Made by a program: the position numbers and the translations under genes
Notes under the pieces: generated by a model
Told to the model about the DNA's origin: nothing
The model's database searches: none
The model's input: the letters and a program-made list of their open reading frames with translations, nothing else
Source: an uncultured Planctomycetia bacterium
GTDB taxonomy: Bacteria; Omnitrophota; Gorgyraeia; 1-14-0-20-64-10
Assembly (NCBI GenBank): GCA_964373805.1
Contig: CAYJWF010000004.1
Coordinates: 1,891-65,890, forward strand
Length of the DNA: 64,000 bases
Reading direction: 5' to 3'
Part shown: positions 1,000 through 64,000 of the stretch, piece after piece
Numbering within the stretch: position 1 is the first letter of the stretch
Layout: each line of letters begins with the position of its first letter

Positions 1000-2431
1000 G
1001 TTTGCGCACCACGGTTCCGCCGGCGGTATCTTCGAGGAGATAGCCGGACTCTTTCAATTGCATTCGAATTTGATCGGCCTTCTTAAAATCGCCGCGCCGA
1101 CGGGCCTCATCCCGTTCCCGGATGAGTTCTCGAATGGCAACAGGAACTTCCTGTCCGAAGGAAAGGCCCAATACACCGGCCAACTCCTGAAGAACCGTTC
1201 GGACGGCTCGGAGCTTTTTCATCGCCTGAGAACCCCGCTCCTCCAGCCAAGGAAGCGCCTGCGCCACCAAGCCGTACAGGGCCGACAACGCCTCAGGGGT
1301 GTTCAAATCGTCGTCCATCGCCTGAACGAATTTTTCCCGCGCCGCGCGAGCGGCGGGAGGTTCCTCCTCTTCCCCCGGCCCGATCCGCTGATCCACCTGC
1401 GTCAAAAATCCGAAGAGTCGTTCATAGGCGTGGGCCGTCTCTTTAAGTCGCTCCCAGGTAAAATCGATCGGGGATCGGTAGTGGGCGGTCAAGAAGAAGA
1501 GCCTTAACACCTCGGCCGGGTGCCGCTTCAAGGTTTCCTCTATCGTAACAATGTTCCCCACCGATTTCGACATCTTCTGACCGTTCACCGTGAGCAGGCC
1601 GTTGTGCAACCAGACCCTCGCAAACGGTTTGCCGGCGCCTTGCGCTTGGGCGATTTCGTTCTCGTGGTGGGGAAAGATAAGGTCCCCTCCTCCACCGTGG
1701 ATATCGAAGGAGTCCCCGAGAAGAGCGGTCGACATGGTGGAACACTCGATGTGCCAGCCGGGACGCCCCGGCCCCCAAGGACTCGCCCAACTGGGCTCCT
1801 CCGGCTTGGCCCTTTTCCAAAGGGCGAAATCGAGCAGATCTTTTTTCGCTTCCACCGCCTCACTCCGAGCTCCGGCCAACATCTGGTCGGGATTCTGATG
1901 GGACAACTTTCCATACGAAGGGAATTTTCGAACCGAAAAGTAAACGCCGTCGCTCCCCACGTACGCCATCCCTCGGCGAAGAAGCTCCTCCATGAAGGCA
2001 ATCATCTTCGGGAGGTACTCGGTCGCCTTCGGCTCGTGGGTGGGGGATAAAAGGCCCAAGCGAGAGAAGTCGGCCTGGAACCGCTCGGTGAAATGCTCCG
2101 CGACCAGTTGAACCTTCATTTTCAAATCTAAAGGGGTCAGACCCCTTTTGCCCACCTCTTGAAGCTCGCGCAGGTCAGGGGCCTGACCCCAGTGGCGGGC
2201 CCGATCGATGATCTTGTCGTCCAGATCGGTGATGTTGCGCGCGTAGGTGACCTGGTAGCCTTTGAAGATCAGGTACCGCAAAAGAACGTCAAAGACTACC
2301 GCTCCCCGCGCGTGGCCGATGTGGCAGTCATCGTAGACGGTGACCCCACAGACGTAGAGGGTCACTTGAGGTGGATGTAACGGGAGGAATTCCTCTTTGC
2401 GACCAGTCAGCGTATTCACGAGTCGCATCAT
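992..2431 (-). CDS. cysS: cysteinyl-tRNA synthetase
   Basis: HIGH and KMSKS motifs (CHIGHARG, KMSKSVGN); 479 aa. Confidence 0.95.
   Translation of the reverse strand: MMRLVNTLTGRKEEFLPLHPPQVTLYVCGVTVYDDCHIGHARGAVVFDVLLRYLIFKGYQVTYARNITDLDDKIIDRARHWGQAPDLRELQEVGKRGLTPLDLKMKVQLVAEHFTERFQADFSRLGLLSPTHEPKATEYLPKMIAFMEELLRRGMAYVGSDGVYFSVRKFPSYGKLSHQNPDQMLAGARSEAVEAKKDLLDFALWKRAKPEEPSWASPWGPGRPGWHIECSTMSTALLGDSFDIHGGGGDLIFPHHENEIAQAQGAGKPFARVWLHNGLLTVNGQKMSKSVGNIVTIEETLKRHPAEVLRLFFLTAHYRSPIDFTWERLKETAHAYERLFGFLTQVDQRIGPGEEEEPPAARAAREKFVQAMDDDLNTPEALSALYGLVAQALPWLEERGSQAMKKLRAVRTVLQELAGVLGLSFGQEVPVAIRELIRERDEARRRGDFKKADQIRMQLKESGYLLEDTAGGTVVRKRV
2130..2152. repeat. P1 palindrome GGGGTCAGACCCC (A/T-flanked) inside cysS
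   Basis: AAAGGGGTCAGACCCCTTTTGCC; in frame; encodes GKRGLTPL. Confidence 0.85.
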
Positions 2432-2461
2432 TTATAACCAACCGAACGGTTTTTGTTTCAT

Positions 2462-3157
2462 TCACTGTTTCTGGCGGTGCTCTTTGAGCTGCCCCTCGAT
2501 GGCGTCGATCTCGTGCTGGAGTTTCTCTAAGGCCTGGGCTAAGGGATCGGGGAGACTGGTGTGATCCAAGTTGATCCCTGGAAAACGCCGCCCCTCCTGT
2601 CGGACGATGCGGCCCGGGACCCCCACCACCACCGCGTTGGCCGGAACGTCCCGGATCACCACGGCGTTGGCCCCAATCTGGACATCATCAGAAATGGTGA
2701 TGTTGCCAAGCACCTTGGCCCCGGTTCCGATCACCACGTTGTTGCCGATGGTGGGGTGCCGCTTCCCCCGCTCTTTGCCGGTCCCACCGAGGGTTACCCC
2801 CTGGTAGATCGTGACGTTGTCCCTCAAGACCGCGGTCTCACCGACGACCACCCCCATGCCGTGGTCGATGAACAGGCCCTGGCCGATCTGGGCCCCCGGA
2901 TGAATCTCGATTCCGGTCAACCCGCGGCTGGTCTGGGAGATGAGCCGCGCCAAGAACTTTAAGCCCAACCGATGCAAGGCATGAGCGACCCGATGGGAAC
3001 CGATCGCCAACACACTGGGATAAAGGAAAAGGACCTCCCACTCCGATCGGGCCGCCGGGTCTCGCTCCAGGGCGGCTCGAATCTCCCTTTTTAACGAGAC
3101 TCGCATGAAAAGCAACCACCCGACCGCAAAAAATAAAATAACCGCTAGGATCGGCAT
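2462..3157 (-). CDS. cysE: serine O-acetyltransferase
   Basis: Left-handed beta-helix hexapeptide repeats, IHPGAQIG...; 231 aa. Confidence 0.85.
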   Translation of the reverse strand: MPILAVILFFAVGWLLFMRVSLKREIRAALERDPAARSEWEVLFLYPSVLAIGSHRVAHALHRLGLKFLARLISQTSRGLTGIEIHPGAQIGQGLFIDHGMGVVVGETAVLRDNVTIYQGVTLGGTGKERGKRHPTIGNNVVIGTGAKVLGNITISDDVQIGANAVVIRDVPANAVVVGVPGRIVRQEGRRFPGINLDHTSLPDPLAQALEKLQHEIDAIEGQLKEHRQKQ

Positions 3158-4329
3158 CCTTGAAGCAGGACGACCGCGTAGGCGGCCATCGCCTCTTTCG
3201 CACCAATGGGACCTAAACCTTCCATCGTCCGGACCTTCACGTTCACTTGGGATTCCTTAACCTTAAGAAGCCTCGCCACGGAGCTGCGAATCGCCTCTCG
3301 ATGGGGACCTAACCGTGGCTCCTCGGTGATGACCATGAGATCGGCGTTGGAAATTTCAAGTTTCCTGGCTCGAATCAGCCGAAGCGCCTTGGCGATGAAT
3401 CGCTGGCTCGGGGCCCCTTTCCATTTGGAATCGGTATCGGGAAAGTGGCTCCCTAAGTCCCCGGCCCCTGCCGCCCCCAGCATCGCGTCGCAGAGGGCGT
3501 GGAGGAGCACGTCCGCATCGGAGTGACCCAGGAGTCCCTTCTTCGCTGGAATCTTCCTTCCCCCTAAGACGAGCGGCCGGCCCGCGATCAACCGATGAAT
3601 ATCAAACCCAATGCCTACTCGCATATCAAAAGGGGTCTGACCCCTTTTGCCTTTCATCAAGGTTTCCGCCATCAAGAGATCATCCTGAGTGGTCACCTTC
3701 AAATTCCGGGGAGAACCTTCCACGATCCGTACCTTGACCCCCATCGCCTCCACCAAGGCTGCGTCATCCGTTGCGGTAACCCGCCTGATTCTTGCCCGAT
3801 GGTGAGCCGATTCCAACAGATCCCGACGAAACACTTGAGGGGTCTGGATCGCCCAGAGGTGGTTTCGATCCAAGGTTTTGGCCACCCATCCGGCCCTGAC
3901 CTGCTTGATCGTCGGAACCACTGGGATAGCCGCCACGGCCGCTTGCGTCCGTTGGGCGGTCCGGATCGTCTCCATAAGGAGCTCCGATGGGACGAGGGGA
4001 CGAGCCCCATCGTGAACCACCACCCACTCTGCCGATGGAGGAAGCGCCTGCAATCCTCGGAAGACTGAGGCGGTCCGAGAAGCGCCTCCCGGGATGATCT
4101 GAATCACCTTCCGATAGCGGTACTTCTGGACCATCCGTTGGACCGCCGCGACATCGTCCCGATGACTGACCACAACCATCCCATCGATCGGACGAGCCTG
4201 CTCCAAGGCGCTTAAGGTCCAAGACAGCATCGGCCGTCCAGCCAACCGGACGAACGGCTTTCGGACCTTCTTCTTAAAACGTCTGCCCTCTCCAGCAGCT
4301 GGGACAATAGCGACAACCCTAGGTGCCAG
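3145..4329 (-). CDS. ispDF: bifunctional 2-C-methyl-D-erythritol 4-phosphate cytidylyltransferase / 2-C-methyl-D-erythritol 2,4-cyclodiphosphate synthase (IspDF)
   Basis: Tracked ORF starts at a TTG (4245). The same frame upstream encodes the conserved IspD N-terminus VVAIVPAAGEGRRF, right up to an in-frame TAG at 4351-4353. The C-terminal half is IspF (GHSDADVLLHAL...). No ATG/GTG/TTG lies between the TAG and the motif; the start is placed at CTG 4327-4329 by inference. Confidence 0.8.
   Translation of the reverse strand: MAPRVVAIVPAAGEGRRFKKKVRKPFVRLAGRPMLSWTLSALEQARPIDGMVVVSHRDDVAAVQRMVQKYRYRKVIQIIPGGASRTASVFRGLQALPPSAEWVVVHDGARPLVPSELLMETIRTAQRTQAAVAAIPVVPTIKQVRAGWVAKTLDRNHLWAIQTPQVFRRDLLESAHHRARIRRVTATDDAALVEAMGVKVRIVEGSPRNLKVTTQDDLLMAETLMKGKRGQTPFDMRVGIGFDIHRLIAGRPLVLGGRKIPAKKGLLGHSDADVLLHALCDAMLGAAGAGDLGSHFPDTDSKWKGAPSQRFIAKALRLIRARKLEISNADLMVITEEPRLGPHREAIRSSVARLLKVKESQVNVKVRTMEGLGPIGAKEAMAAYAVVLLQGCRS
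3628..3650. repeat. P1 palindrome inside ispDF (IspD-IspF linker)
   Basis: AAAAGGGGTCTGACCCCTTTTGCC; encodes GKRGQTPF. Confidence 0.85.
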
Positions 4330-4350
4330 GTCGACTTTAGACCCCTTTTG

Positions 4351-5379
4351 CTATCTCGCCGCCTTCCAGGCCGCTCGAGAGTTCTCCACCTCCGGCTTGG
4401 CAAAGATCATCCGCCCCGCAGCGGTCTGAAGGACGCTCGTCACCAACACCCGAACCGTCTGCCCGATCAAGGAACGACCCTGTTCGACCACCACCATGGT
4501 CCCGTCATCGAGGTAGGCCACCCCCTGATTGTACTCCTTGCCCTCTTTGATCACCCGGGCCTCCAACAGCTCCCCGGGCAACACCACCGGCTTTAAGGCG
4601 TTGGACAACTCGTTGATGTTAAGCACCGGGACCCCTTGCAGCTCGGACACCTTGTTCAAATTAAAATCGTTGGTCAAGATCTTGGCCCCCATCAGCTTCG
4701 CCAATCGGACGAGCTTCGCGTCCACCTCTTTGGTGTCCGGGAATTCCTCCTCGTGGATCTTCACCTCCACGGAAGGAATCTTCTGCATCCGGGCCAAGAC
4801 GTCCAACCCCCGACGACCTCGGTTGCGCTTGATGGGGTCTTGGCTGTCGGCGATCTGCTGGAGCTCCTTCAAGACAAAACGGGGGATCACCAACCGGCCC
4901 TCGATGAACTGGGTATCACAGATGTCCGCGATCCGCCCATCGATGATGACGCTCGTGTCAAGGATGACGACCTCTTCCCGTTGATCCTGGCGGGTAAACT
5001 TCACATAGGGGATGATGACGTTGAACTCATCCCGACCCCGAACGGCGATGGCCATCCCAAAGTAACAGAAGATCACGACGATCGCCGCCCGAACGGGATT
5101 GCCCAACTCCGGCCCGGTGGGAACCATATCCAAGGTCGTGATGATGAGCCTCGCCATCAACAGCCCAAAGGCCAGCCCAAAGGCGGCGGCCGAGAGGCCG
5201 CGGCTCGAAACCTTCTTCAAGGCCAATTCCAAACCGATCAAGATCAAAGCCACACCGGCTCCCCCCAGGGCTCCGGTCAAGCCCGCCTCGGATCCCCCCA
5301 AGCCCATCAAGGGTCCGATCTGATAACCGACCATGGCCCCTAGGGCCACAAAGAAGAATCGAATGAACCACAGCGTCAT
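4351..5379 (-). CDS. PIN/TRAM domain membrane protein (YacL-like)
   Basis: N-terminal TM helices, PIN domain ([12 protein letters not shown]), C-terminal TRAM-like domain; yacL is the usual neighbour of ispDF. Confidence 0.75.
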
Positions 5380-5400
5380 GGAAAATTCCTCCTGATAACA

Positions 5401-6138
5401 CTATTTCTTCTTGCTCTCCTTGGGACGATAAAGAAGCTTCCAGGGATGGGCCTTGATGTCGGAAGCGATCCCTTTCAGATCCTCGTAGAGATCGTCCTGG
5501 GTCAACAACCGACCGATGGTCCCCTCCCCCTGTCGAACCTTCGCTAAAATGATGTTGCCCTGGTCGAGCATCTGGGACAGCTTCTCGGTAGCCTCCGCCG
5601 AATGGGCGATGGTGTTCTTCAAATCCTCCTGGGTCGCGGGATTGCCGACCACCGCGTGGATGGAGGCGATGGTCTGCTCCAACTGTTGAACCACCCGATA
5701 CCCGGCTTCGACGAGTTGTTCGCTCGGCACCGAATCCTTTCCCTGAAGGACCTCCCCCGAGGTGAGCACCCGGCTGCCCGGGGTTCCGGGGATCACCTCC
5801 AGGTATTTCTCTCCAATGAGTCCCAAGGTATTGATGTAGGCCACCGCATCCTCTTCCACGCGAGCCTGTTTTAAAACCTGTATCCCCAGCTCCGCCTGCA
5901 TCCGCTGCGTGGCCTCGTCTCGGAAGACCCGCACCGAACGGACCTCCCCGACGTTCACCCCGGCCAAACGGACCGGGGCCCCTGCTTCAACCCCGTTGGC
6001 AAAGTTGAACCGCACCCGCAAGGTGTACTGAGGCTTGGCCGTGTAAAAATCGCTGATCGAGAAGACTACGACGGAAAACAGGATGAAGGCAATGAACACA
6101 AACAACCCTATCTTGATCTCTCGGGTATTCCCAGCCAT
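5401..6138 (-). CDS. mlaD: MCE-family lipid transport substrate-binding protein MlaD
   Basis: N-terminal TM anchor plus MCE domain; sits next to the mlaF/mlaE homologs. Confidence 0.75.
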   Translation of the reverse strand: MAGNTREIKIGLFVFIAFILFSVVVFSISDFYTAKPQYTLRVRFNFANGVEAGAPVRLAGVNVGEVRSVRVFRDEATQRMQAELGIQVLKQARVEEDAVAYINTLGLIGEKYLEVIPGTPGSRVLTSGEVLQGKDSVPSEQLVEAGYRVVQQLEQTIASIHAVVGNPATQEDLKNTIAHSAEATEKLSQMLDQGNIILAKVRQGEGTIGRLLTQDDLYEDLKGIASDIKAHPWKLLYRPKESKKK

Positions 6139-6164
6139 GGGACTCCTCTCCTTAAAATACGGCT

Positions 6165-6905
6165 CTAAGCTCCATTCTCATCCCGTTTGCCTAGAATAAA
6201 TTGGCTCACTACAGGATTCGTGGTGGAACGAATCTCCGTTGGCGTTCCTACCTCGATGATTTTCCCATCGTGCAGCATCGCGATTCGATCGGCGATCTTG
6301 TAGGCCGAAACCATATCGTGGGTCACCGCCACGGCAGTCACCTTTAACCGATCGTGCAGTTCCCGAATCAAATCGTTGATGGCATCGGCCATGATGGGAT
6401 CGACGCCGGTGGTCGGTTCGTCGCAGAGGATCACCTTGGGACGAATCGCCAGGGCCCGGGCCAGCCCCACCCGCTTACGCATCCCGCCGGAAAGCTCGGC
6501 CGGCTTTCGATCCTCGATGCCTTGAAGGCCCACCAGCTTCAAACAATCCTTCACCCGATCCTGAATCTCTGGATCGCTCATTCGGGTATGCTCCTTTAAC
6601 GCGAAGGCCACATTTTCCCCGACGGTCAACGAATCGAACAAAGCCGCTCCCTGGAACAGCATCCCAAACTTAAGCCTTAAAGCGGCCAGCACCTCCCCGG
6701 CAACGTGAGCGATGTCTTGACCGTCCACCAGGACCTGGCCCTGATCCGGCTTCACCAAACCGATGATGTGCCGCAGCAAAACCGTTTTCCCCCCTCCCGA
6801 TCGGCCAATGATCACCATCGTCTCGCCGTCCCGTATGGTCAGGTTCACCCCCTTGAGCACCGGATGGCCGTTGAAGTTCTTGTACAGGTTGATGATCTCA
6901 ATCAC
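6165..6905 (-). CDS. mlaF: ABC transporter ATP-binding protein MlaF
   Basis: Walker A GRSGGGKT, signature LSGGMRKRVGLARA, Walker B ILCDEP. Confidence 0.85.
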   Translation of the reverse strand: MIEIINLYKNFNGHPVLKGVNLTIRDGETMVIIGRSGGGKTVLLRHIIGLVKPDQGQVLVDGQDIAHVAGEVLAALRLKFGMLFQGAALFDSLTVGENVAFALKEHTRMSDPEIQDRVKDCLKLVGLQGIEDRKPAELSGGMRKRVGLARALAIRPKVILCDEPTTGVDPIMADAINDLIRELHDRLKVTAVAVTHDMVSAYKIADRIAMLHDGKIIEVGTPTEIRSTTNPVVSQFILGKRDENGA

Positions 6906-18017: not shown

Positions 18018-18036
18018 ACGGGGTCAGACCCCATCA
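18018..18036. repeat. P1 palindrome, intergenic (ilvE-mcsA)
   Basis: CAACGGGGTCAGACCCCATC. Confidence 0.8.
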
Positions 18037-18906
18037 ATACCGCACCCCGGCGGTTCTGGTGAGCTTCCGGAAATCCCGCATGAACCTCAAGGTCAACCTC
18101 CCCGGCTTTCCGGTGCCAATCGAACGCCCATCGATCTTGACCACCGGGGCAATCTCCGCGGCGGTGCCGGTTAAAAAACATTCCTCGGCGTTGTACAGAT
18201 CGTGTCGGGTCAGCATCTCCTCGCGGACCTTCCGGCGAACCTCAGTTGCCAACCCGATGACGCAGTCGCGGGTGATCCCCCTTAAGATGCCGGCGTAGGC
18301 CGGGGGGGTCATCAGGATTCCCCGACGGACAATGAAGATATTCTCCCCTGTGCATTCCGAGACGTAGCCCTGGGCAGACAGCATCAGGGCCTCTTCGACC
18401 CCCGCGTTGATCGCCTCGATCTTAGCCAAGATGTTGTTCAGGTAGTTCAGCGACTTGATCTGGGGGTTCAGCGCCTCCGGCAGATTCCGGGGGGTGGGAA
18501 CTGTGACGATCTCCATTCCCTCCTGGTAGATCCGCTTCGGGTACAGCACGATTTTGTCCGCGATGATAAAGACCGTCGGCTTCTCGCACTTGCGCGGGTC
18601 CAATCCCAGGTCACCCACCCCGCGGGTGACGACCAGCCGAATGTAGGCGTTGGTCAACCGGTTGGCCCGCAGGGTCCCCACCACCGCCTGGATCATCTCC
18701 TCCTTGTTTAACGGGATCTTGAGCAGGATCGTGTGGGACGACTCGTAAAGGCGATCCACATGTTCCTTCAGTTTAAAGACGAGGCCATCGTAAGAACGGA
18801 TCCCCTCGAAGACCCCGTCGCCGTAGAGAAGGCCGTGATCGTAGAGGGAGATCTGTGCCTTAGAGGAATCCACCAGTTTCCCATTCAGATAGACCTTTAG
18901 TCCCAT
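18034..18906 (-). CDS. ilvE: branched-chain amino acid aminotransferase (class IV PLP enzyme)
   Basis: Fold-type IV aminotransferase motifs, 290 aa. Confidence 0.8.
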   Translation of the reverse strand: MGLKVYLNGKLVDSSKAQISLYDHGLLYGDGVFEGIRSYDGLVFKLKEHVDRLYESSHTILLKIPLNKEEMIQAVVGTLRANRLTNAYIRLVVTRGVGDLGLDPRKCEKPTVFIIADKIVLYPKRIYQEGMEIVTVPTPRNLPEALNPQIKSLNYLNNILAKIEAINAGVEEALMLSAQGYVSECTGENIFIVRRGILMTPPAYAGILRGITRDCVIGLATEVRRKVREEMLTRHDLYNAEECFLTGTAAEIAPVVKIDGRSIGTGKPGRLTLRFMRDFRKLTRTAGVRY

Positions 18907-28989: not shown

Positions 28990-30064
28990 CTATCTCTTCT
29001 GGGCTTTCCACCGAAGATACGCGTCTAAAAATAGGTCCAGCTCCTCGCCGGCTAAGACCCCTTGCGTCTTGCCGGTCTCCACTCCGGTCCGGTGGTCCTT
29101 GACCATCTGGTACGGATGAAGCACGTACGATCGGATCTGTGAGCCCCATTCGATCTTTTGCTTCTCGGCGTACTGCTTGGCCAGGGCCTCTTCCCGAATC
29201 TTTCGCTCCAGCTCGCACAGCCGAGCGCGAAGGACCTTCATCGCGAAGGCCTTGTTCTTGTGCTGGGACCGTTCGTTTTGGCACTGGACCACGATGCCGG
29301 TCGGCAGGTGGGTGATCCGCACGGCGGAATCGGTGGTGTTCACCCCCTGTCCGCCGGGTCCGCTGGCTCGGTAGACATCGATCCGAAGATCCTTCTCCGG
29401 CAGATCGATCGGAAGGTCGTCCGCCACCTCCGGGATCACATCCACCGCGGCGAAAGAGGTGTGCCGCCTCTTGTTGGCATCGAACGGCGAGATCCGAACC
29501 AGGCGATGGACCCCGTTTTCTCCTTGAAGAAGACCAAAGGCGTAATCTCCCCGGAGGAGGAGCGTCACCGATTTGATCCCCGCCTCTTCCCCCACCAGAT
29601 AATCCAGCACCTCGGTCTCGAACCCTTTGGTCTGGGCCCATCGGCTGTACATCCGAAACAGCATCGAGACCCAGTCGCACGACTCCGTTCCGCCCGCGCC
29701 GGCGGTAATGGAGAGGATCCCGTTGTTGGCGTCGGACTCTCCTCGGAACAGGGTGCGTCGCTCGAGAAGGGCAACCTCTTTTCCTAAACTTGTGAGGGAT
29801 CGCTTGAGATCGGCTTGTGCCGCGGTGTCGTGCTCATCGATGAGGGGGGCCAATTCCTGAAGGGTCTCGGCCTCCCCCCAAGCTCTTTTCCAGTGCTCGA
29901 GGATGCCTTTGAATTTTTTAAGTTCCTGGATGGTGACCCCGGCCTTGGTTTGGGTATCCCAAAATCCGGGAGTCGCGATGGCCTGTTCGAGAACCTTTAT
30001 CCTGGACTCAACCTGGTCCAGGTCAAAGATACCTCCGCAGGTTTTGCAGGGTCTCTCGAAGGGA
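28990..30064 (-). CDS. prfB: peptide chain release factor 2, with programmed +1 frameshift
   Basis: Short 0-frame [26 protein letters not shown] ends at CTT TGA C preceded by the SD-like GGAGG (minus-strand sense, near 29982-29988). The +1 frame continues [10 protein letters not shown]... into the tracked ORF, which has the GGQ motif (GPGGQGVN). Confidence 0.9.
29982..29988 (-). promoter_or_regulatory. prfB: prfB programmed +1 ribosomal frameshift site (CUU UGA C) with upstream SD-like GGAGG
   Basis: Minus-strand sense GCGGAGGUAUCUUUGACCUGG; classic autoregulatory RF2 frameshift. Confidence 0.85.
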
Positions 30065-47303: not shown

Positions 47304-49868
47304 TTAAACGACGAGGCTGATGAGGCGGTTGGGGACGACAATCACCTTCTTCGGCGGCTTGCCATCCAACCAGCGTTGAACGTTGGGATCCTGAAGAACC
47401 TTGGCCTTCAGCTCCTCCTCTTGAGAGCCAACCGGGACCGTCAGATGGGAGCGGACCTTGCCGTTGACCTGCACGACCAGGGTCACCTGCGACTCCTGGA
47501 GGAGGGCAGGATCGTAGGTTGGCCAAGGAGCCTTGGCCAACATCTCCTGGTGGCCCAGCCGTTCCCACAGCTCCTCGGCCAGGTGAGGGGCAAGGGGGTT
47601 TAAAAGCCGGGCCAGCGTCTCGATGGCTTCCTTTCTCTGCCCATCGGAAAGCTGAGGAAAAATCCTCTCCAGGGAGTTCCGATACTCCATCAGGGCGCTG
47701 ATCGCCGTGTTGAACTTGAAGCTCTCCAGATCCTCGGTGACCCGCTTGATCGTCGCGTGGGTGAGGCGCTTAAGCTCACCATCCGATGGAAAACCTGATG
47801 GGGTCAGACCCCTTGGGGTCTGACCCCTTTGACCCTCCACCAAGTTCCAGACCCGATTCATGAACCGCCAGATGCCGTCGATGGCGCTGTCGTTCCATTC
47901 CAGTTGATCCTCCGGGGGAGCGGCGAAAAGGATGAAGAGTCTTAAGGCATCGGCCCCGTACTTGGCGATCACTCCCTCCGGATCGACCACGTTCCCCTTG
48001 GATTTGGACATGACCTCGCCATCCTTCAAAACCATTCCCTGAGTCAAGAGGCGAGAAAACGGCTCTGAGATTGTAAGGAGCCCTAGATCCCGCAGGAACT
48101 TGGTGAAGAAACGGGAATACAGGAGATGCAGGATGGCGTGCTCGATCCCACCGATGTACTGGTCCACCGGCATCCAGAAGGCGGCCTCTTGGGAATCAAA
48201 CGCAGTGGCGGCCGCTTTCGGGGCCGCGTGCGGCTTCGGGGAACAGAACCGCAGGAAGTACCACGAGGAGTCGAAGAAGGTGGCTATGGTGTCGGTCTCT
48301 CGACGGGCCGGTTGCCGACATTTGGGACAGGGCGTCTCCACAAAGGCCTTGACCTTGGCCAACGGTGAGCCCCCGGCTCCTGTGATTGAAACCTTGGGCG
48401 GCAAGGTGACCGGCAACTGGTTCTCAGGAACCGGCACGGTCCCGCAACGGGAGCAGTAAACGATCGGGATGGGAGTCCCCCAGTACCGCTGTCGAGAGAT
48501 GAGCCAATCCCGAAGCCGCCAATGGGTCGTCCGCTGGCCAAATCCATTCTCCTCCATCCAGGCGGCGATCTTTCCCTTACCCTCTTGACTAGACAGACCA
48601 TTAAACTGGGCGGAGTTGACCTGGATCCCTTCCCCTTCGAAGGCCTCTTTCCATCGGCTGGGATCAGGGACAGTCCCCGAAGCTTGCCCTGAGCTTGTCG
48701 AAGTGGGAGACGGTCCCTGAGGAGGCTGGATCACGACTCGGATCGGAAGTCGATGTTCCTTGGCGAACAGAAAATCCCGCTGATCGTGCGCCGGGACCGC
48801 CATGATCGCCCCGGTGCCGTACTCCATGAGGACATAATCGGCCACCCAGATCGGGATTGCCTCTGCGTTCACCGGGTTGATGGCCATCCGCCCGGTGAAA
48901 ATCCCCTCCTTCTTTCTATCGGCGGCGGTCCGGACCTCTCTGGGCTGGCGCTTCACCCGATCGATGAAGGCCCGAACCTGGGGCCCTTTAGGGTTACCTT
49001 GAAGAAGCTCCTCGACGACCGGATGTTCTGGCGCCAAAACGACGTAGGTGGCGCCAAAGATCGTGTCCGGCCGGGTGGTAAAGACCGGAAGTTTTGTCGA
49101 GCTGTTCTGAATGGAAAATTGGATCCGAACCCCTTGGCTCTTCCCGATCCAGTTCCGTTGCATGGTTAAGACACGCTCCGGCCAGCGGCCCAAGGTATCC
49201 AGGTCCTGCAGGAGTTCCTCCGCATACGCGGTGATTTTCAAGAACCACTGCTCCAACTCCTTCGGCTCCACGGCGGTTCCACAGCGCCAGCAGCCGTCTT
49301 GGACCACCTCCTCGTTGGCCAGGGTCGTCTGACAACTGGGACACCAGTTGACCGTGGCTCCGGCCCGATAGGCGAGGCCCTTCTCGAACATCTTGAGGAA
49401 GATCCACTGGTTCCATCGGTAATAGTCCGGCTGGCAGGTCACCACCTCTCGATTCCAGTCGTAGGAGAATCCCAAACGTTTCAAGCCGGTTCGCACCTCT
49501 CCGATGCACCGGAAGGTCCACTCGGCCGGATCCACCTTCTGTTTGATCGCCGCGTTCTCCGCCGGCTGGCCAAAGGCATCGAATCCCGTGGGATGAAGGA
49601 CCCGGTACCCCTGGGCCATCCGAAACCGGGCCAGGACGTCGCCGATCGTGTAGTTCCGGACATGCCCCATGTGGAGGCGCCCCGAGGGATAGGGGAACAT
49701 TTCCAGGAGGTAATATTTTCCTCTTCCGGTGTCTGGCACCGACCCGACCTTTGGCTCCTTCGGGGTGCCTGACACCGGTGTGGCCTGGAAGATCTTCGCC
49801 TCTTCCCACCGCCGCTGCCACTTTTCTTCGATTTCTTGAAATGGGTAAGCCATCGTCGGAAAAGCCAT
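47304..49868 (-). CDS. leuS: leucyl-tRNA synthetase
   Basis: HIGH (HMGHVRN) and KMSKS motifs; 854 aa; carries two in-frame repeat insertions. Confidence 0.95.
47798..47830. repeat. two tandem P1 palindromes inside leuS
   Basis: GATGGGGTCAGACCCCTTGGGGTCTGACCCCTTT; encodes [12 protein letters not shown]. Confidence 0.85.
48655..48700. repeat. R3-related segment inside leuS coding sequence
   Basis: ...GCTTGCCCTGAGCTTGTCGAAGTGGGAG...; in frame; encodes part of the [14 protein letters not shown] linker in LeuS. Confidence 0.5.
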
Positions 49869-49937: not shown

Positions 49938-50008
49938 TGGGGCTGTAGCGTAAAGGGAGCGCATCTCCATGGCATGGAGGAGGTGAGGGTTCGATTCCCT
50001 CCAGCTCC
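49938..50008 (+). tRNA. tRNA-Ala (anticodon GGC)
   Basis: Cloverleaf folded by hand: acceptor GGGGCTG/CAGCTCC with G3:U70, anticodon loop ATGGCAT, T-arm GAGGG-TTCGATT-CCCTC; coordinates +/-1. Confidence 0.7.
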
Positions 50009-50029
50009 AACAATTTCCATTCAAATACT

Positions 50030-50113
50030 TGGGGATGTGCTGGAATTGGCAGACAGGGGAGTCTCAAAAACTCCTGGGCGCAAGCCCGTGGGGGTTCAAG
50101 TCCCTCCATCCCC
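50030..50113 (+). tRNA. tRNA-Leu (anticodon CAA), type II with long variable arm
   Basis: Acceptor GGGGATG/CATCCCC, D-arm CTG-GAATTGGCAGA-CAG, anticodon stem GGAGT/ACTCC with loop CTCAAAA, variable arm TGGGCGCAAGCCCGT, T-loop TTCAAGT; coordinates +/-1. Confidence 0.7.
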
Positions 50114-50151
50114 ACTCAAATTTCTCCATCCCTCATTTGGGAGGGCTCTTG

Positions 50152-50895
50152 GTGCCTAAGCCACGGCTTCCTGACAAAGACTTTCCTTGGACACCTGAAC
50201 TGGCTTACGCGATTGGTCTTCTTACGACAGATGGCAATCTATCAAAGGATGGACGACACATCACCCTAAGATCGTCCGATCTACAACTTTTGGAGACATT
50301 CAGACGTTGCCTTAATCTGACGCGAAGCGGCCCGATCGTCCTGACAAAACGGACGGGGTGGGCTAAGAAGCCAAGCTTTAGGGTTCAATTCAGCAACGTT
50401 CAGTTCTATCGATGGCTCACGAAAATCGGTTTGCATCCTGCGAAAACGTATACCTTGGGTGAGCTGCGTGTTCCCGACGCGTATTTTCCAAACTTTCTGA
50501 GAGGCCACCTGGATGGGGATGGTTCCATTACAGTATCCAGGGACACCTATAACACTTTTAAACATCCCAAATATGTGTACACAAGACTCTACGTGAGCTT
50601 TCTATCGGCAAGTAGACAACACGTGGATTGGATTCAATCGAAGATCTCCGTATTGCTCGGCATTCAGGGTCATAGAAGCCACTACTCTCGAAAAGGCAAC
50701 GGTCGCCACGCTACCATGTGGAAGCTCCGATGTGCTAAGAAAGACTCTTTGAAGCTGCTGGCACGGTTATACCATCGGCAGGACATCCCCTGCTTGGAAC
50801 GCAAAAGAGAGATCGCGAAACAACGGCTTATCCCTTCCTGGGAGGAAGGAGACACAGACAGCGAGAGTTCTCAAAAAGTGCTAGGCCTGCCTTGA
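50152..50895 (+). CDS. LAGLIDADG homing endonuclease (double-motif), free-standing
   Basis: Two LAGLIDADG motifs (LAYAIGLLTTDGNL and LRGHLDGDGSITVS); likely GTG start after a GGGAGGG Shine-Dalgarno, ~40 nt after tRNA-Leu; the tracked ORF extends upstream over the tRNA and that part is rejected. Confidence 0.7.
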   Translation: MPKPRLPDKDFPWTPELAYAIGLLTTDGNLSKDGRHITLRSSDLQLLETFRRCLNLTRSGPIVLTKRTGWAKKPSFRVQFSNVQFYRWLTKIGLHPAKTYTLGELRVPDAYFPNFLRGHLDGDGSITVSRDTYNTFKHPKYVYTRLYVSFLSASRQHVDWIQSKISVLLGIQGHRSHYSRKGNGRHATMWKLRCAKKDSLKLLARLYHRQDIPCLERKREIAKQRLIPSWEEGDTDSESSQKVLGLP

Positions 50896-55811: not shown

Positions 55812-58646
55812 ATGATGAAGGAATCCCAGCCGGTTGCCGTAATCCCTGGTTCTGCCGTAGAGAAAACACCCTTTGCCCCTTCCTCGGCCCCCTCCACGGC
55901 AGGGTTAAAGATCTCCCGTTACTTCACCGCGCCGGGATCGGATCCGTTTCGGGAGGTGACCTGGGAGTTCCGGACCGCCTCTATCGCCAACGAAAACGGA
56001 GAGTCGGTCTTTGAGCAATCTCAGGTGGAGGTTCCCAACTTCTGGTCGCAGACCGCCACCAACGTCGTCGCTTCCAAATATTTTCGCGGGGCCTTGCGCA
56101 CCCCTCAACGAGAGACCTCCGTCAAGCAGTTGATCGGCCGCGTGGTCGACACGATCACGAGCTGGGGAATCCAGGACGGTTACTTCGCGGGATCCGAAGA
56201 GGCTCAAAATTTCCACGCGGAGCTGACCCACCTTCTCCTCATGCAGAAGGCCTCCTTTAATTCCCCGGTCTGGTTCAATGTCGGAATTGAGCCTCATCCT
56301 CAGTCCTCGGCTTGCTTCATCCTATCCGTAGAGGACACGATGGAGTCGATCCTCGACTGGTACAAGGTCGAGGGGATGATCTTCAAATACGGTTCCGGCT
56401 CGGGGGTGAACCTATCTCCGATCCGCTCCTCCTCTGAGTCGCTGGCCGGCGGTGGGACCGCCTCCGGACCGGTTTCCTTCATGCGGGCCGCCGATGCCTC
56501 GGCCGGGGTGATCAAGTCCGGCGGAAAAACTCGCAGGGCCGCAAAAATGATCGTCTTGAACGCCGACCATCCCGACATCGAAAAGTTCATCGCCTGCAAG
56601 TGGCAGGAGGAGAAGAAGGCCCGGACTTTGGTGGACGCCGGCTTCGACGCCTCCCTCGATGGAGAGGCCTACTCGAGCGTTTTCTTCCAGAACGCCAACA
56701 ACTCGGTCCGGGCGACCGATGAATTCATGCGGGCTGCCCTCGAGGATAAGCCGTGGGATTTAAAGGGGGTGACCACGGGCAAGGTGATGAAGACGGTGAA
56801 GGCCCGAGAGCTTCTGCGCATGATCGCGGAGGCCACCTGGCACTGCGGCGATCCGGGCATGCAGTTCGATACCACGTTCAACAAATGGCACACCTGCCCT
56901 AACTCCGGACGGATCAATGCAACAAACCCCTGTTCAGAATACGCCCATTTGGACAACAGCGCCTGCAATCTGGCCAGTCTTAACCTTATGAAGTTTGTCG
57001 ATGACGAGGGCCGATTTCGAATCGCCGATTTCCGCAACGCGGTCCGGACCATGACCATCGCCATGGACATCCTCGTGGACAACTCCTCGTATCCGACCCC
57101 GAAGATTACCGAGAATGCGAAAAATTTCCGAGAACTGGGGTTAGGGTATGCCAACCTCGGGGCGCTCCTCATGTCGCTGGGCCTGCCGTACGATTCCGAT
57201 GGAGGCCGAGCCTATGCGGCCACGGTGACCGCGCTCATGTGTGGGGAGGCGTATCGAACCTCCGCCGAGATCGCCGGAGCGAAAGGCCCTTACGGGGGGT
57301 TTACCAAGAATCGGGAGCCGCAGCTGAACGTGATCCGGATGCATCGGGACGCCTTGATCCACGTGGACGACCGTCTCGTTCCGAAGGAGTTGTTCGCCGC
57401 GGCCGCCCACGCCTGGGAGGAGGCCCTCCGATTGGGAACGGCCAACGGGGTACGTAACTCCCAGATGAGTGTGGTCGCCCCGACGGGGACTATAGGATTC
57501 ATGATGGATTGCGACACGACCGGGGTGGAGCCGGATATCGCGCTGATCAAGTACAAGAAGTTGGTGGGAGGGGGATTGATCAAGATCGTCAACCAGACGG
57601 TTCCCCACGCCTTGAAACGGTTGGGGTACTCCGAGGCAGACGCCCGGGTGATCCTGGAGTATCTGGATCGGCAGGAGACGATCGAAGGAACCCCCGCTCT
57701 AAATCCAAAAGATCTGCCGGTTTTTGACTGCGCCTTCAAACCGGCCAAGGGAACCCGCTCGATCCATTACCTGGGGCATGTCCGGATGATGGGGGTGGTG
57801 CAGCCTTTCATCAGCGGGGCCATCTCGAAGACCGTGAATGTTCCGGCGGAGGCGACCACCGAGGATATCCTGGAAACCTATCTCGAGGCCTGGAAGGCCG
57901 GGGTCAAGGCGATTGCCATCTACCGGGACGGTTCCAAGCGGGTTCAGCCTCTCTCGACAGGAAAATTCGGTGAAGGCAAGCAAGGGGCCGCCGTCCATTC
58001 CACGAAGAATGGAGAGCCTCTCACAGAAATTCCTTCCGCCGATGGCGCCAAGCACCGCCCCCAGCGGCGCTACCTACCCGACGAACGGCACGCGATCACC
58101 CACAAGTTTTCCATCGCCGGCCACGATGGGTACGTCACCGTCGGGCTCTACGAGGACGGAAAACCGGGGGAGATTTTCATCGTCATGTCCAAGGAGGGGA
58201 CCGTGATCTCCGGTTTGCTGGATGCCTTCGCCACCGCCATCTCCCTGGCCCTTCAATACGGCGTGCCGCTGGAGGCATTGGTCAAGAAGTTCAGCCACAT
58301 GCGGTTTGAGCCGGCAGGGGTCACCTCGAATCCGCAGATTCGGTTCGCCCAATCGATCCTCGATTACGTCTTCCGCTGGATGGCGCTCAAGTTCCTGCCA
58401 GCGGATAAGCAGCCGACTCCACCCGCCACCGTGACCGACCTGGCCGCTAAGCAGGCCGACATCACTCTGCCTTCTTCCACCGTAGGGACCACCTCGAGCC
58501 TCGAGCCGGTTCGACAAACGGAGGTCACCCAACTCTTTCAAGGCCAGGTGGATGCCCCACCCTGCCCGGACTGCGGGGCGATGATGATCCGCTCCGGCAA
58601 CTGCTACAAGTGCTTTAACTGCGGCGCCACCTCTGGCTGCTCTTAA
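55812..58646 (+). CDS. nrdJ: adenosylcobalamin-dependent ribonucleoside-diphosphate reductase (class II, NrdJ)
   Basis: Class II RNR catalytic core (...NPCSEYAHLDNSACNLASLNL..., SVVAPTGTIGF) and a C-terminal Cys-rich zinc ribbon; AGAGGAG Shine-Dalgarno; 944 aa. Confidence 0.9.
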   Translation: MMKESQPVAVIPGSAVEKTPFAPSSAPSTAGLKISRYFTAPGSDPFREVTWEFRTASIANENGESVFEQSQVEVPNFWSQTATNVVASKYFRGALRTPQRETSVKQLIGRVVDTITSWGIQDGYFAGSEEAQNFHAELTHLLLMQKASFNSPVWFNVGIEPHPQSSACFILSVEDTMESILDWYKVEGMIFKYGSGSGVNLSPIRSSSESLAGGGTASGPVSFMRAADASAGVIKSGGKTRRAAKMIVLNADHPDIEKFIACKWQEEKKARTLVDAGFDASLDGEAYSSVFFQNANNSVRATDEFMRAALEDKPWDLKGVTTGKVMKTVKARELLRMIAEATWHCGDPGMQFDTTFNKWHTCPNSGRINATNPCSEYAHLDNSACNLASLNLMKFVDDEGRFRIADFRNAVRTMTIAMDILVDNSSYPTPKITENAKNFRELGLGYANLGALLMSLGLPYDSDGGRAYAATVTALMCGEAYRTSAEIAGAKGPYGGFTKNREPQLNVIRMHRDALIHVDDRLVPKELFAAAAHAWEEALRLGTANGVRNSQMSVVAPTGTIGFMMDCDTTGVEPDIALIKYKKLVGGGLIKIVNQTVPHALKRLGYSEADARVILEYLDRQETIEGTPALNPKDLPVFDCAFKPAKGTRSIHYLGHVRMMGVVQPFISGAISKTVNVPAEATTEDILETYLEAWKAGVKAIAIYRDGSKRVQPLSTGKFGEGKQGAAVHSTKNGEPLTEIPSADGAKHRPQRRYLPDERHAITHKFSIAGHDGYVTVGLYEDGKPGEIFIVMSKEGTVISGLLDAFATAISLALQYGVPLEALVKKFSHMRFEPAGVTSNPQIRFAQSILDYVFRWMALKFLPADKQPTPPATVTDLAAKQADITLPSSTVGTTSSLEPVRQTEVTQLFQGQVDAPPCPDCGAMMIRSGNCYKCFNCGATSGCS

Positions 58647-58674: not shown

Positions 58675-58692
58675 GGGGTCTGACCCCATCAG
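58675..58692. repeat. P1 palindrome, intergenic (after nrdJ)
   Basis: CTCGGGGTCTGACCCCATCAG. Confidence 0.8.
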
Positions 58693-59276
58693 AATTTTTC
58701 GCACCGTTTTAAGATCGCCCGAAAGTTCCTCTTCAAGCTCGAGCGCTCCAGTTCTTGGAAAACCCACTCGGGAATCCAGAAGTTCGGTTCGACGGTCGTT
58801 TCGTACGTGATTCGGGTTTCCCCTTCGACCGATTCCAAATACCAGTAGCCCTGATTCCATACAAAATCCCCCTCGACCGCCTTAAAGAGAAGCTGGGTGT
58901 TGGAAATTTCTTGAACCTGGAAAACCGTTCGGATCACTCTTCGATAAAACGGCAAGCGGACTCTTGCCTCCTGATAGAGCACTAAGCGATCCCCTTTTCG
59001 CTCAAGGACTTTGGAGATCTTAAGATCCGGGATAAATTCGGCTAGGTGGTCGTAATCGGTCAAAACAGCCCAAACCTTTTCCTTTGGGACAGCAACGACC
59101 ACCCGGGCTAAGACGTAGGTTCGACGGGGGGCTAGACGCTCTACGGTAACGGTAAGGGAATAGGGCCCTATTTCGGTAACGCGGGTTTCCTCGGCAAGAA
59201 GGAAAGAGGCGCTCCCCACGAGAGAGCTTAACGCCAGCAGTAAGGTTACACCACCCATGCAAGTTGACCCGTTCAC
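58689..59276 (-). CDS. secreted SRPBCC (START/Bet v1-like) family protein
   Basis: Signal peptide then polyketide-cyclase/dehydrase-like fold pattern (~150 aa). Confidence 0.45.
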   Translation of the reverse strand: MNGSTCMGGVTLLLALSSLVGSASFLLAEETRVTEIGPYSLTVTVERLAPRRTYVLARVVVAVPKEKVWAVLTDYDHLAEFIPDLKISKVLERKGDRLVLYQEARVRLPFYRRVIRTVFQVQEISNTQLLFKAVEGDFVWNQGYWYLESVEGETRITYETTVEPNFWIPEWVFQELERSSLKRNFRAILKRCEKF

Positions 59277-63587: not shown

Positions 63588-63799
63588 TTTTTCGGTGATG
63601 ACCGGGGCTAGCTGTCTGGATTGTTCATTTCGCCATAGAAATGTCCTGTTAGTAACAGGTTACCTGCTCCCGCAGGAAAATTCAAGGCCCCACAAGCCGC
63701 AAGGAAATTTTCCTCACTTTTACCTCCCCATAGGCCATACTTGATGTGAAGACCTCGAAAAAGGCACGGCCACATTCAAGGCCACGCAAAGCCACGGAT

Positions 63800-63845
63800 C
63801 TTTTGGTGCCAGGCACCTTTTAAAGATGGGTGCCTGGCACCAAAA
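63800..63845. repeat. P2 twin hairpins GGTGCCAGGCACC + GGTGCCTGGCACC upstream of tpsA
   Basis: TTTTGGTGCCAGGCACCTTTTAAAGATGGGTGCCTGGCACCAAAAAAG. Confidence 0.8.
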
Positions 63846-64000
63846 AAGAGAGCCGGGCTGCCGAGGTGCAGAAGATTTTGCGTCACGGCAACCCGGCGTT
63901 TTTATTTTCCTGGTTTCCTTCGGCCTTTCGTAAAAGGTGAGAACGGATTAGGATGGAAGGGATAACCTTAAGATGACGATGCAGCGAGTTAATCCTTTGC

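Follow-up and report, generated by a model that had tools for sequence, protein, structure and literature searches.

A dispersed 23-nt palindrome forms the linker of a lineage-specific IspD-IspF fusion and probably joined the two genes by shifting the reading frame

Analysis of a 64-kb stretch of DNA from an uncultured bacterium (assembly GCA_964373805.1, contig CAYJWF010000004.1; the whole 64,000 nucleotides are referred to here as the window) showed that the isoprenoid biosynthesis genes ispD and ispF are fused into a single gene, ispDF, whose linker is a translated palindrome of 23 nt. The palindrome belongs to a multicopy element that recurs elsewhere in the window, and the fusion is specific to this lineage. 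The reading frames on either side differ from those of unfused relatives by exactly the length of the palindrome, and the former ispF start codon (ATG) and ispD stop codon (TGA) are both still present as relics. The element is best read as a dispersed hairpin repeat with the core GGGGTCWGACCCC, similar to the repetitive extragenic palindromic sequences (REPs) and located at gene ends and, in stop-free frames, in permissive loops. Insertion of a single 23-nt copy probably caused the fusion, and we assign this full model a probability of roughly 0.7.

The sequence AAAAGGGGTCTGACCCCTTTT occupies positions 3628–3648 and, together with C3627 and G3649, forms a perfect 23-nt palindrome around one central base (Table 1). 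On the coding (minus) strand the linker reads ..GGC AAA AGG GGT CAG ACC CCT TTT GAT.., and the open reading frame (ORF) running across it translates to ...AETLMKGKRGQTPFDMRVGIGFD..., or over a longer excerpt to ...NLKVTTQDDLLMAETLMKGKRGQTPFDMRVGIGFDIHRL.... In the translation of 3145–4320, Pfam placed IspD (PF01128) at residues 2–223 and YgbB/IspF (PF02542) at residues 233–386, both full length and without stops or frameshifts, and the residues encoded by the palindrome occupy the gap between the two domains. An earlier note on this DNA, made from its letters alone, had proposed that a palindrome present elsewhere in the stretch also serves as the linker at the IspD/IspF junction. Both parts of that proposal were borne out: the palindrome at 3627–3649 fills the gap between the Pfam domains, and its 13-nt core occurred six times without mismatch in the 64 kb, compared to 0.06–0.26 occurrences expected from dinucleotide shuffles, none of which reached six. 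The protein could be aligned end to end (residues 5–385) with the bifunctional IspDF of Campylobacter jejuni (1W55), relative to which it has approximately six extra linker residues, and both halves are probably active. As RNA, the junction palindrome forms a 10-bp hairpin, and the 51-nt stretch containing it scored −17.6 kcal/mol (z = −3.4).

Table 1. Positions of the fused ispDF gene, its relic codons and the copies of the palindromic element in the window.
Feature	Position	Strand	Remarks
Perfect 23-nt palindrome CAAAAGGGGTC-T-GACCCCTTTTG, IspD-IspF linker	3627..3649	minus (coding)	Encodes K-R-G-Q-T-P-F
ispD-derived half	3652..4329	minus	Pfam IspD domain at 3652-4317
ispF-derived half	3145..3624	minus	YgbB domain at 3163-3624; stop at 3147-3145
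Retained ancestral ispF start codon, ATG	3624-3622	minus	Opens the ispF-derived half
Relic of ancestral ispD stop, TGA (G GTT TGA T)	3602..3604	minus	Now out of frame; same place in L149 and L150
Half copy of the element (CAAAAGGGGTC in minus-strand sense)	4340..4350	minus	Directly after the yacL stop (TAG, 4353-4351), upstream of ispDF
Second 23-mer copy, in cysS	2128..2150		One mismatch, in the A/T run; encodes G-K-R-G-L-T-P-L
One-mismatch core GGGGCCTGACCCC, in cysS	2178..2190		Encodes W-G-Q-A-P; 45 nt from the core at 2133
Intergenic copy	18020..18032		1 nt downstream of the stop of a class IV aminotransferase gene (18034-18906, minus)
Tandem core pair, 2 nt apart, in leuS	47800..47827		Variable loop before the anticodon-binding domain; encodes 10 residues
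Intergenic copy between convergent genes	58675..58687		Ribonucleotide reductase gene ends at 58646; other gene at 58689-59276

The closest relatives of the window are uncultured bacteria, probably Omnitrophota, and were retrieved by synteny through the contigs of relatives of its cysteinyl-tRNA synthetase (CysRS) and IspF. Wherever their contigs were long enough, the gene order mlaE-mlaF-mlaD-yacL(PIN)-ispD-ispF-cysE-cysS-tmk-holB was shared with the window. The ispD and ispF genes were separate in 10 of 10 relative contigs: they overlapped by 23 nt in L149, L150/L151, L154 and the P0244 contig, were separated by gaps of 4–51 nt in L153, L155, L277 and L278, and lay approximately 6.6 kb apart in L152 (1697–8307), with a 1782-aa protein and a nucleotidyltransferase-type gene pair between them. 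The gap in L155 (372–411) contains CTTACAG four times. The monofunctional proteins of these relatives shared 54–60% (IspD) and 64–72% (IspF) identity with the respective halves of the window protein, compared to 41–52% for fused IspDF homologs, whose linkers were hypervariable in both length and sequence. Since the monofunctional proteins of the relatives are closer than any fused protein, the fusion in the window arose within a clade that has two genes.

No fused ispDF was found in this clade by the whole-protein homolog search and the contig look-ups. The whole-protein search listed fused proteins only, because two-domain hits outscore closer single-domain ones; the ancient fusion that this list suggested was a ranking effect and was corrected by the synteny-based retrieval. 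A search with IspF alone did not list the window's own protein, possibly due to a length filter, and the absence of fused close relatives is based on the whole-protein search and the contigs. We are highly confident that the fusion is specific to this lineage and that its linker is a copy of the dispersed element. The earlier note had left two origins open, insertion of the element into an existing linker or a contribution of the element to the fusion itself, and had suggested a comparison with close relatives. Those relatives had separate genes and were closer (54–72%) than fused IspDF proteins (at most 52%), which favours the second origin and not the first, and among the relatives checked the same fusion without the palindrome was not encountered.

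Bifunctional IspDF is well known in other bacteria (PMC5821942, PMC10663253; C. jejuni PDB 1W55). The enzyme in the window resembles these proteins in having IspD followed by IspF across a short linker, but its halves are nearest to the monofunctional IspD and IspF of its own clade, its linker is approximately six residues longer and consists of a translated repeat, and the fusion event is separate. Common descent with the known fusions was not supported, the best fused homolog being 52% identical, and the IspDF described here would represent an independent origin of the same architecture.

The reading frames at the junction indicate how the two genes may have been joined. In L149 the junction reads ...CTT CTG AGG AGC C ATG CGA ATC GGA ATC GGG TTT GA, where the ispF ATG lies in frame +1 relative to ispD and a TGA within ispF codons 7–8 forms the ispD stop; the ispD stop lies at the same place in L150, and L154 has the same 23-nt overlap. 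In the window it reads ...TTG ATG AAA GG[C AAA AGG GGT CAG ACC CCT TTT G]AT ATG CGA GTA GGC ATT GGG TTT GAT (palindrome in brackets) and is 23 nt longer than in L149. L149 and L154 have 1 nt, and L150 has 49 nt, between the conserved tail codons and the ATG (each 1 mod 3), vs. 24 nt (0 mod 3) in the window. After excision of 3627–3649 in silico, ispD ended in ...AETLMKGYASRHWV followed by its stop, the ispF ATG fell in the +1 frame, the genes overlapped by 23 nt and the TGA was placed as in the relatives. The spacing was then exactly that of L149, with four tail codons (L-L-R-S in L149), one base and the ATG. Removal of 21 or 24 nt in silico left the genes fused, and removal of 22 nt left ispF out of frame with ispD.

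In the ancestor, ispD and ispF would have been separate adjacent genes: the 3′ end of ispD would have contained the ispF ATG, offset from the ispD frame by one base, and the TGA that closed ispD would have lain 20 nt within ispF. Insertion of one 23-nt element copy would have taken place two bases upstream of the ispF ATG. Because 23 equals 2 mod 3, the ispD frame would have continued into ispF and the old ispD stop would have been shifted out of frame. The outcome would have been a single IspD-linker-IspF polypeptide with the translated palindrome as its linker. The insertion would probably also have displaced any ribosome-binding site of ispF, which would now be expressed through read-through from ispD. 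A single insertion of 23 nt appears to be the most economical history, and insertion and fusion were probably one and the same event.

The main competitor of the single insertion is a two-step history, in which a small indel first fused ispD and ispF and the palindrome, as a unit of 21 or 24 nt, later entered an unconstrained linker in frame. We consider this unlikely, since it requires an extra event for which there was no intermediate in any relative and no fused gene in the clade, and since the perfect palindrome measures 23 nt rather than 21 or 24. The excision of 23 nt also recovers the spacing, the ATG position and the stop position of the relatives. An open fused frame is nevertheless retained when 21 or 24 nt are removed, the hypervariable linkers of fused IspDF proteins would tolerate an insertion, and the other coding copies of the element, in cysS and leuS, are in-frame additions to loops.

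Further observations weigh against the single insertion. Relatives differ in the length of the ispD tail that precedes the ispF ATG (1 nt from the conserved codons to the ATG in L149 and L154, 49 nt in L150, and intergenic gaps of 4–51 nt in L153, L155 and L277), and because of this variation the ancestral tail length in this lineage is inferred rather than known. Databases contained no relative above approximately 70% (IspF) or 68% (CysRS) identity, and hence no empty site in a near-identical genome. The copies in the window have no GTAG or CGTC tag at the end of the palindrome, there is no target-site duplication beside the copies at 3627–3649 or 2128–2150, and no gene for a transposase, including those of the REP-associated tyrosine transposase (RAYT) type, was present among the approximately 30 ORFs scanned in the window or in the loci of the relatives. 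Finally, no ATG, GTG or TTG lies upstream of the conserved AIVPAAGEGRRF motif of ispDF (minus strand, 4306–4353), and the absence of a canonical start leaves some doubt as to how, or whether, the gene is fully expressed. The open frame starts right after the yacL stop and has only CTG (4329–4327) and ATT (4308–4306) as near-cognate candidates, of which CTG is the most plausible start. The half palindrome at 4350–4340 could provide an AGGGG ribosome-binding site for ispDF.

The lack of a start codon, together with a public protein (P0001) that begins at an internal Met (MLSWTL) and does not include the nucleotide-binding AIVPAAGEGRRF motif, could also point to a sequencing or assembly error at the hairpin, or to a decaying pseudogene that has lost its start. 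Either is scarcely credible. Three independent Logan assemblies from separate sequencing runs (L001–L003) agreed with the window base for base (100% identity over 2210–6833), so that the fusion is not an assembly artefact; both Pfam domains are intact over their full length, and the window contains no other ispD or ispF.

The element was also found at the ispD/ispF junction of one relative in which the genes are separate, an arrangement that the earlier note had suggested looking for. In L278 (Logan SRR22387855, 930–970; IspF 70% identical), two copies of the palindrome make up the tail of ispD, ...AETLLNRKILKGSDPFRAKRV (KGSDPFRAKRV before the stop). Here ispD terminates at the TGA of the second copy, after which come CCCC and, 4 nt past the stop, the ATG of ispF. 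The junction is a recurrent target of the element, and this case shows that termination of one gene or joining of two depends on the frame and orientation in which the element lies.

Within the window, exact cores are located at 2133 (cysS), 3632 (ispDF), 18020, 47800 and 47815 (both leuS) and 58675, and one further core has a single mismatch. At two mismatches the count in the window was at chance level, so nearly all copies are perfect, and no other palindrome of the design GGGG-XY-N-Y'X'-CCCC was present anywhere in the window. Two full copies and one half copy lie 0–2 nt from stop codons; four exact cores and one near copy, at three sites, are intragenic. The flanks are either AAAA/TTTT or (C/T)TGAT/ATCA(G/A). 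The cysS copies at 2133 and 2178 flank a 32-nt spacer within an insertion of approximately 22 aa in CysRS and fold into one longer hairpin with a 14-bp stem, and the leuS pair likewise folds into one with a 12-bp stem. On the coding strand, the cysS and ispDF copies share 26 of 29 nt (GGCAAAAGGGGTCWGACCCCTTWGATWTG). All coding copies in the window use the same frame, xGG GGT CWG ACC CCx (R/W-G-Q/L-T-P), with identical codons. The single variable base of the core is the central W; whether it is A or T reveals which way round this otherwise symmetric element lies and determines whether L or Q is encoded. The constraint acts on the DNA rather than on the protein. Selection at the protein level for an R-G-x-T-P motif was rejected in view of the identical codons, the alternation between Q and L and the existence of intergenic copies.

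A function tied to position was weighed as well, in which the hairpin would be kept as a partial terminator, a site of RNA processing or stability or a translational pause, with only an incidental role in the fusion. In its A4-G4...C4-T4 design the palindrome is similar to a bidirectional intrinsic terminator, and as RNA it forms a stable hairpin. Intergenic copies lie 1–2 nt from stop codons; described REPs are thought to act as RNA elements at gene 3′ ends (PMC3733652). The four U residues, however, pair with the A run in the stem, a simple terminator consensus scan does not flag the site and a T run is missing from both intergenic copies (18020 and 58675). We regard this explanation as highly improbable, since it leaves the frame arithmetic unaccounted for, and such a function would be compatible with an origin by insertion. 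A comparable terminator-like mobile repeat is SPRITE of Streptococcus pneumoniae (PMC10969869), which shares with the element a GC-rich hairpin with A and T runs at gene ends, whereas the element is much shorter, also occurs inside ORFs and is a putative terminator.

Relatives of CysRS provided a second site at which the presence of the element could be compared. The window CysRS has approximately 22 more residues than those of Escherichia coli and Coxiella, and these contain both cysS copies. Among CysRS relatives (47–68% identity, several labelled Candidatus Omnitrophota) the site was polymorphic for presence or absence of the element: 11 of 119 bear one or two palindrome-encoded peptides, e.g., WGLTPLDF, and the remainder, including the closest (68% identity), have the short loop RARQEAGEDL and no copy. 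A check at the DNA level confirmed that the peptides at this site in relatives are encoded by the palindrome. The cysS gene of L149 (6406–6463) contains two exact cores 32 nt apart, in the same architecture as at 2128–2190 of the window; the palindromes are perfect or near-perfect in both genomes, whereas the sequence between them has diverged and both copies have the opposite central base. Retention of the pair despite divergence of the spacer suggests maintenance, re-homogenisation or re-insertion rather than neutral decay. A tandem pair is present in the cysS of L152, and no copy was found within 20 kb in L150 or within 16 kb in L151.

The cysS dimer of L153, GGGGTCAGACCCCTTGGGGTCTGACCCCATCAGGTTT, is nearly identical, flank included, to the leuS dimer of the window, the common unit of 37 nt consisting of the dimer and the 9-nt flank ATCAGGTTT. 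That one unit occupies leuS in one genome and cysS in another speaks for mobility or copying and against evolution in place. At leuS itself an insertion could not be demonstrated by comparison of the leucyl-tRNA synthetase with solved structures, the dimer lying in a variable loop without net gain in length.

These comparisons bear on the possibility that no insertion took place and that the palindrome arose in situ by point mutation, under a drive or selection like that on HIP1 or uptake sequences, with the fusion being unrelated. This is very unlikely, as occupied and empty sites differ in length: the CysRS loop exceeds that of E. coli, of Coxiella and of the closest relative by approximately 22 aa, and the ispD/ispF junction is 23 nt longer in the window than in L149. 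The 37-nt dimer-plus-flank recurs in different genes of different genomes, and in other phyla the core flanks transposase genes. What such a process would account for is the strong over-representation of the motif with almost all copies perfect, and the near-perfect cysS copies in both the window and L149 where the 32-nt spacer has diverged. HIP1 of cyanobacteria and DNA uptake sequences are over-represented short words that also occur in coding DNA (PMC5861425, PMC4390886). Like them, the element is a short palindrome that is greatly over-represented both within genes and between them and uses restricted reading frames. Those words accumulate without change in length, whereas sites occupied by the element exceed empty ones in length, and complete units, flanks included, turn up in more than one gene.

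The element was not confined to this lineage. An exact search for AAAGGGGTCWGACCCCTTT with one genome per species returned at least 120 stretches, compared to approximately 4 expected by our own rough estimate. The matches listed came from Acidobacteriota, Planctomycetota, Actinomycetota, Lachnospiraceae, Myxococcota, Desulfobacterota, Alpha-, Beta- and Gammaproteobacteria and Rickettsiales; their loci (L004–L123) ranged from 26% to 76% GC, and many contained several copies. In these listed loci the TC/GA core was counted 195 times vs. 5 for the 15 other cores of the same design, and copies were depleted in long ORFs, with 37% in open frames of at least 200 aa vs. 85% of random positions. The dimer with 2-nt spacing was present in at least 120 metagenome stretches (L157–L276). 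Among the dimer matches listed, flanks were lineage-specific (e.g., AAAACCTGAT..., GAACTGCT..., GAAAAA...AACTTCAC), and dimers within open frames of at least 200 aa were distributed 34, 24 and 1 over the three frames, almost all in the two stop-free ones. Intragenic copies were found in an acyl-CoA synthetase gene (L016, 1021–1058), in pepP and nadE of metagenome-assembled genomes (MAGs) of Rickettsiales (L075, 2660–2711; L083, 2447–2459), where they encode KGSDPF or RGQTPF, and in a polyprenyl synthase gene (L203, 451–478), where the palindrome encodes 10 residues.

In one relative, L019 (GCA_964372575.1), an open frame of at least 693 codons joins an amino-acid permease (residues 23–415) to a PCMT methyltransferase (485–687) over a palindrome pair, GRGGLTPKGVRPLL (3245–3274), with an internal Met just before the PCMT domain. 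This may be a second fusion bridged by the palindrome, or only an open intergenic stretch. In viral contigs, the monomer was present in 9, several of them multi-copy, compared to 8, 3 and 0 for control palindromes, all single copy, which is weakly informative; the dimer and its controls all gave 0 matches there and were uninformative. Searching the literature for the core yielded nothing but unrelated primers and viral sequences, the REP survey PMC3733652 and its supplements do not contain it, and Rfam has no family covering the palindrome.

A link to transposases was observed in other phyla. A screen for ORFs with the palindrome on both sides returned two Y1_Tnp proteins, from L027 (a Sandaracinaceae MAG) and L107 (a Desulfobotulus MAG). 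They scored 47.6 and 42.9 bits against Pfam PF01797 (cutoff 23), and among NCBIfam models NF047646 ('REP-associated tyrosine transposase') matched best, with 74 and 68 bits where its cutoff is 80. The HUH and Y-x-x-x-NP motifs are visible in both proteins, which are only 30% identical to each other. Homologs also lay within 250–730 nt of copies in five further loci selected by the palindrome. REP/RAYT systems are known to have genes arranged in this way. By analogy with these genomic associations, the element may have been mobilised in the present lineage too, as a single-stranded hairpin moved by a RAYT-type Y1 transposase. We give this an even chance, the proposal being carried over from other phyla because neither the window nor the loci of the relatives contains such a gene. 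The tip of the Tn3 inverted repeat, GGGGTCTGAC, is core-like, a similarity on which no claim rests.

A wider proposal, which we put forward only tentatively and regard as rather doubtful, is that GGGGTCWGACCCC might be the conserved recognition hairpin of one widespread and ancient RAYT clade, whose miniature repeats would have spread through at least nine phyla and would form an undescribed general generator of gene fusions and fissions. If true, such repeats would routinely enter coding sequence in two stop-free frames (R-G-Q/L-T-P or G-S-D-P), where they would add loops, supply stops (as in L278) or weld neighbouring genes (ispD-ispF and perhaps permease-pcm in L019).

Among known systems, the element is most similar to REPs, REPINs and their RAYTs. 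It is a short, hairpin-forming, multicopy repeat with several copies per locus, also in relatives and other phyla; copies are often paired into longer hairpins (14-bp stem in cysS, 12-bp stem in leuS) and some lie near gene 3′ ends; some copies or dimers inside ORFs encode short peptide inserts; and RAYT-like genes of other phyla have this core as their immediate flank. Opitutus, Thauera and Rickettsia conorii have been reported to carry REPs inside genes, frequently as dimers that encode 20–30 residues (PMC3733652, Di Nocera et al., 2013), and REPINs are the mobile doublet form of REPs (PMC3116915, Bertels and Rainey, 2011). Described REPs bear a GTAG or CGTC tag (PMC3733652), which the element does not have, and are imperfect palindromes, whereas the element is perfectly self-complementary. 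A RAYT gene has so far not been found in this lineage (window and loci of relatives).

Rickettsia palindromic elements (RPEs) of approximately 150 bp occur in-frame in many Rickettsia genes, according to the review PMC10969869, which cites Ogata et al. (2000, 2002). Like them, the element would be selfish palindromic DNA lying in-frame in housekeeping genes and tolerated in surface loops, and its core is also present in pepP and nadE of Rickettsiales MAGs. RPEs are, however, approximately 100–150 bp long and found only in Rickettsia, while the element measures 13–23 bp, or approximately 28–60 bp when paired, and is present in several phyla. An RPE extends a single protein by a peptide module, while here the insertion would join two by a frame shift. 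With a unit of 13–23 bp and an uncultured host that is probably one of the Omnitrophota, the element does not fit the RPE definition of a conserved peptide module of approximately 100–150 bp in Rickettsia. The terminal inverted repeats, length of 50–500 bp and target-site duplication of miniature inverted-repeat transposable elements were also not observed, the whole unit being a 23-bp palindrome. In the literature, no description was found of a REP-like unit fusing two enzyme genes via a frame shift, or of one core common across phyla and flanking RAYT-like proteins that are only 30% identical.

The usual explanation for a gene fusion is a deletion or rearrangement by which a stop codon is lost. 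In the window the entire fusion event can be read from the sequence, as a 23-bp repeat in the overlap of two translationally coupled genes, with a frame change of +2 and the relic codons still visible. It would provide a concrete mechanism by which miniature REP-like repeats make new proteins. IspDF is a drug-target candidate of the methylerythritol phosphate (MEP) pathway, and the window offers a natural experiment on the functional value of the IspD-IspF fusion. REPs are usually species-specific. One core common to lineage-specific repeat families and RAYT-like genes across many phyla runs counter to that picture and may matter more for repeat biology than the fusion itself.

Other features of the window were noted in passing. 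A release-factor ORF on the minus strand (28990–29853; RF-1 and PCRF domains) lacks the first approximately 60 positions of the PCRF profile. The known programmed +1 frameshift of prfB would yield such a PCRF-truncated ORF. A cyclic di-GMP-I riboswitch match at 63753–63865 scored 36.6 bits, compared to the Rfam gathering score of 35. Two tRNA genes are located at 49939–50009 and 50031–50114, the second of which is overlapped by a LAGLIDADG-like ORF (50029–50895) at its listed start.

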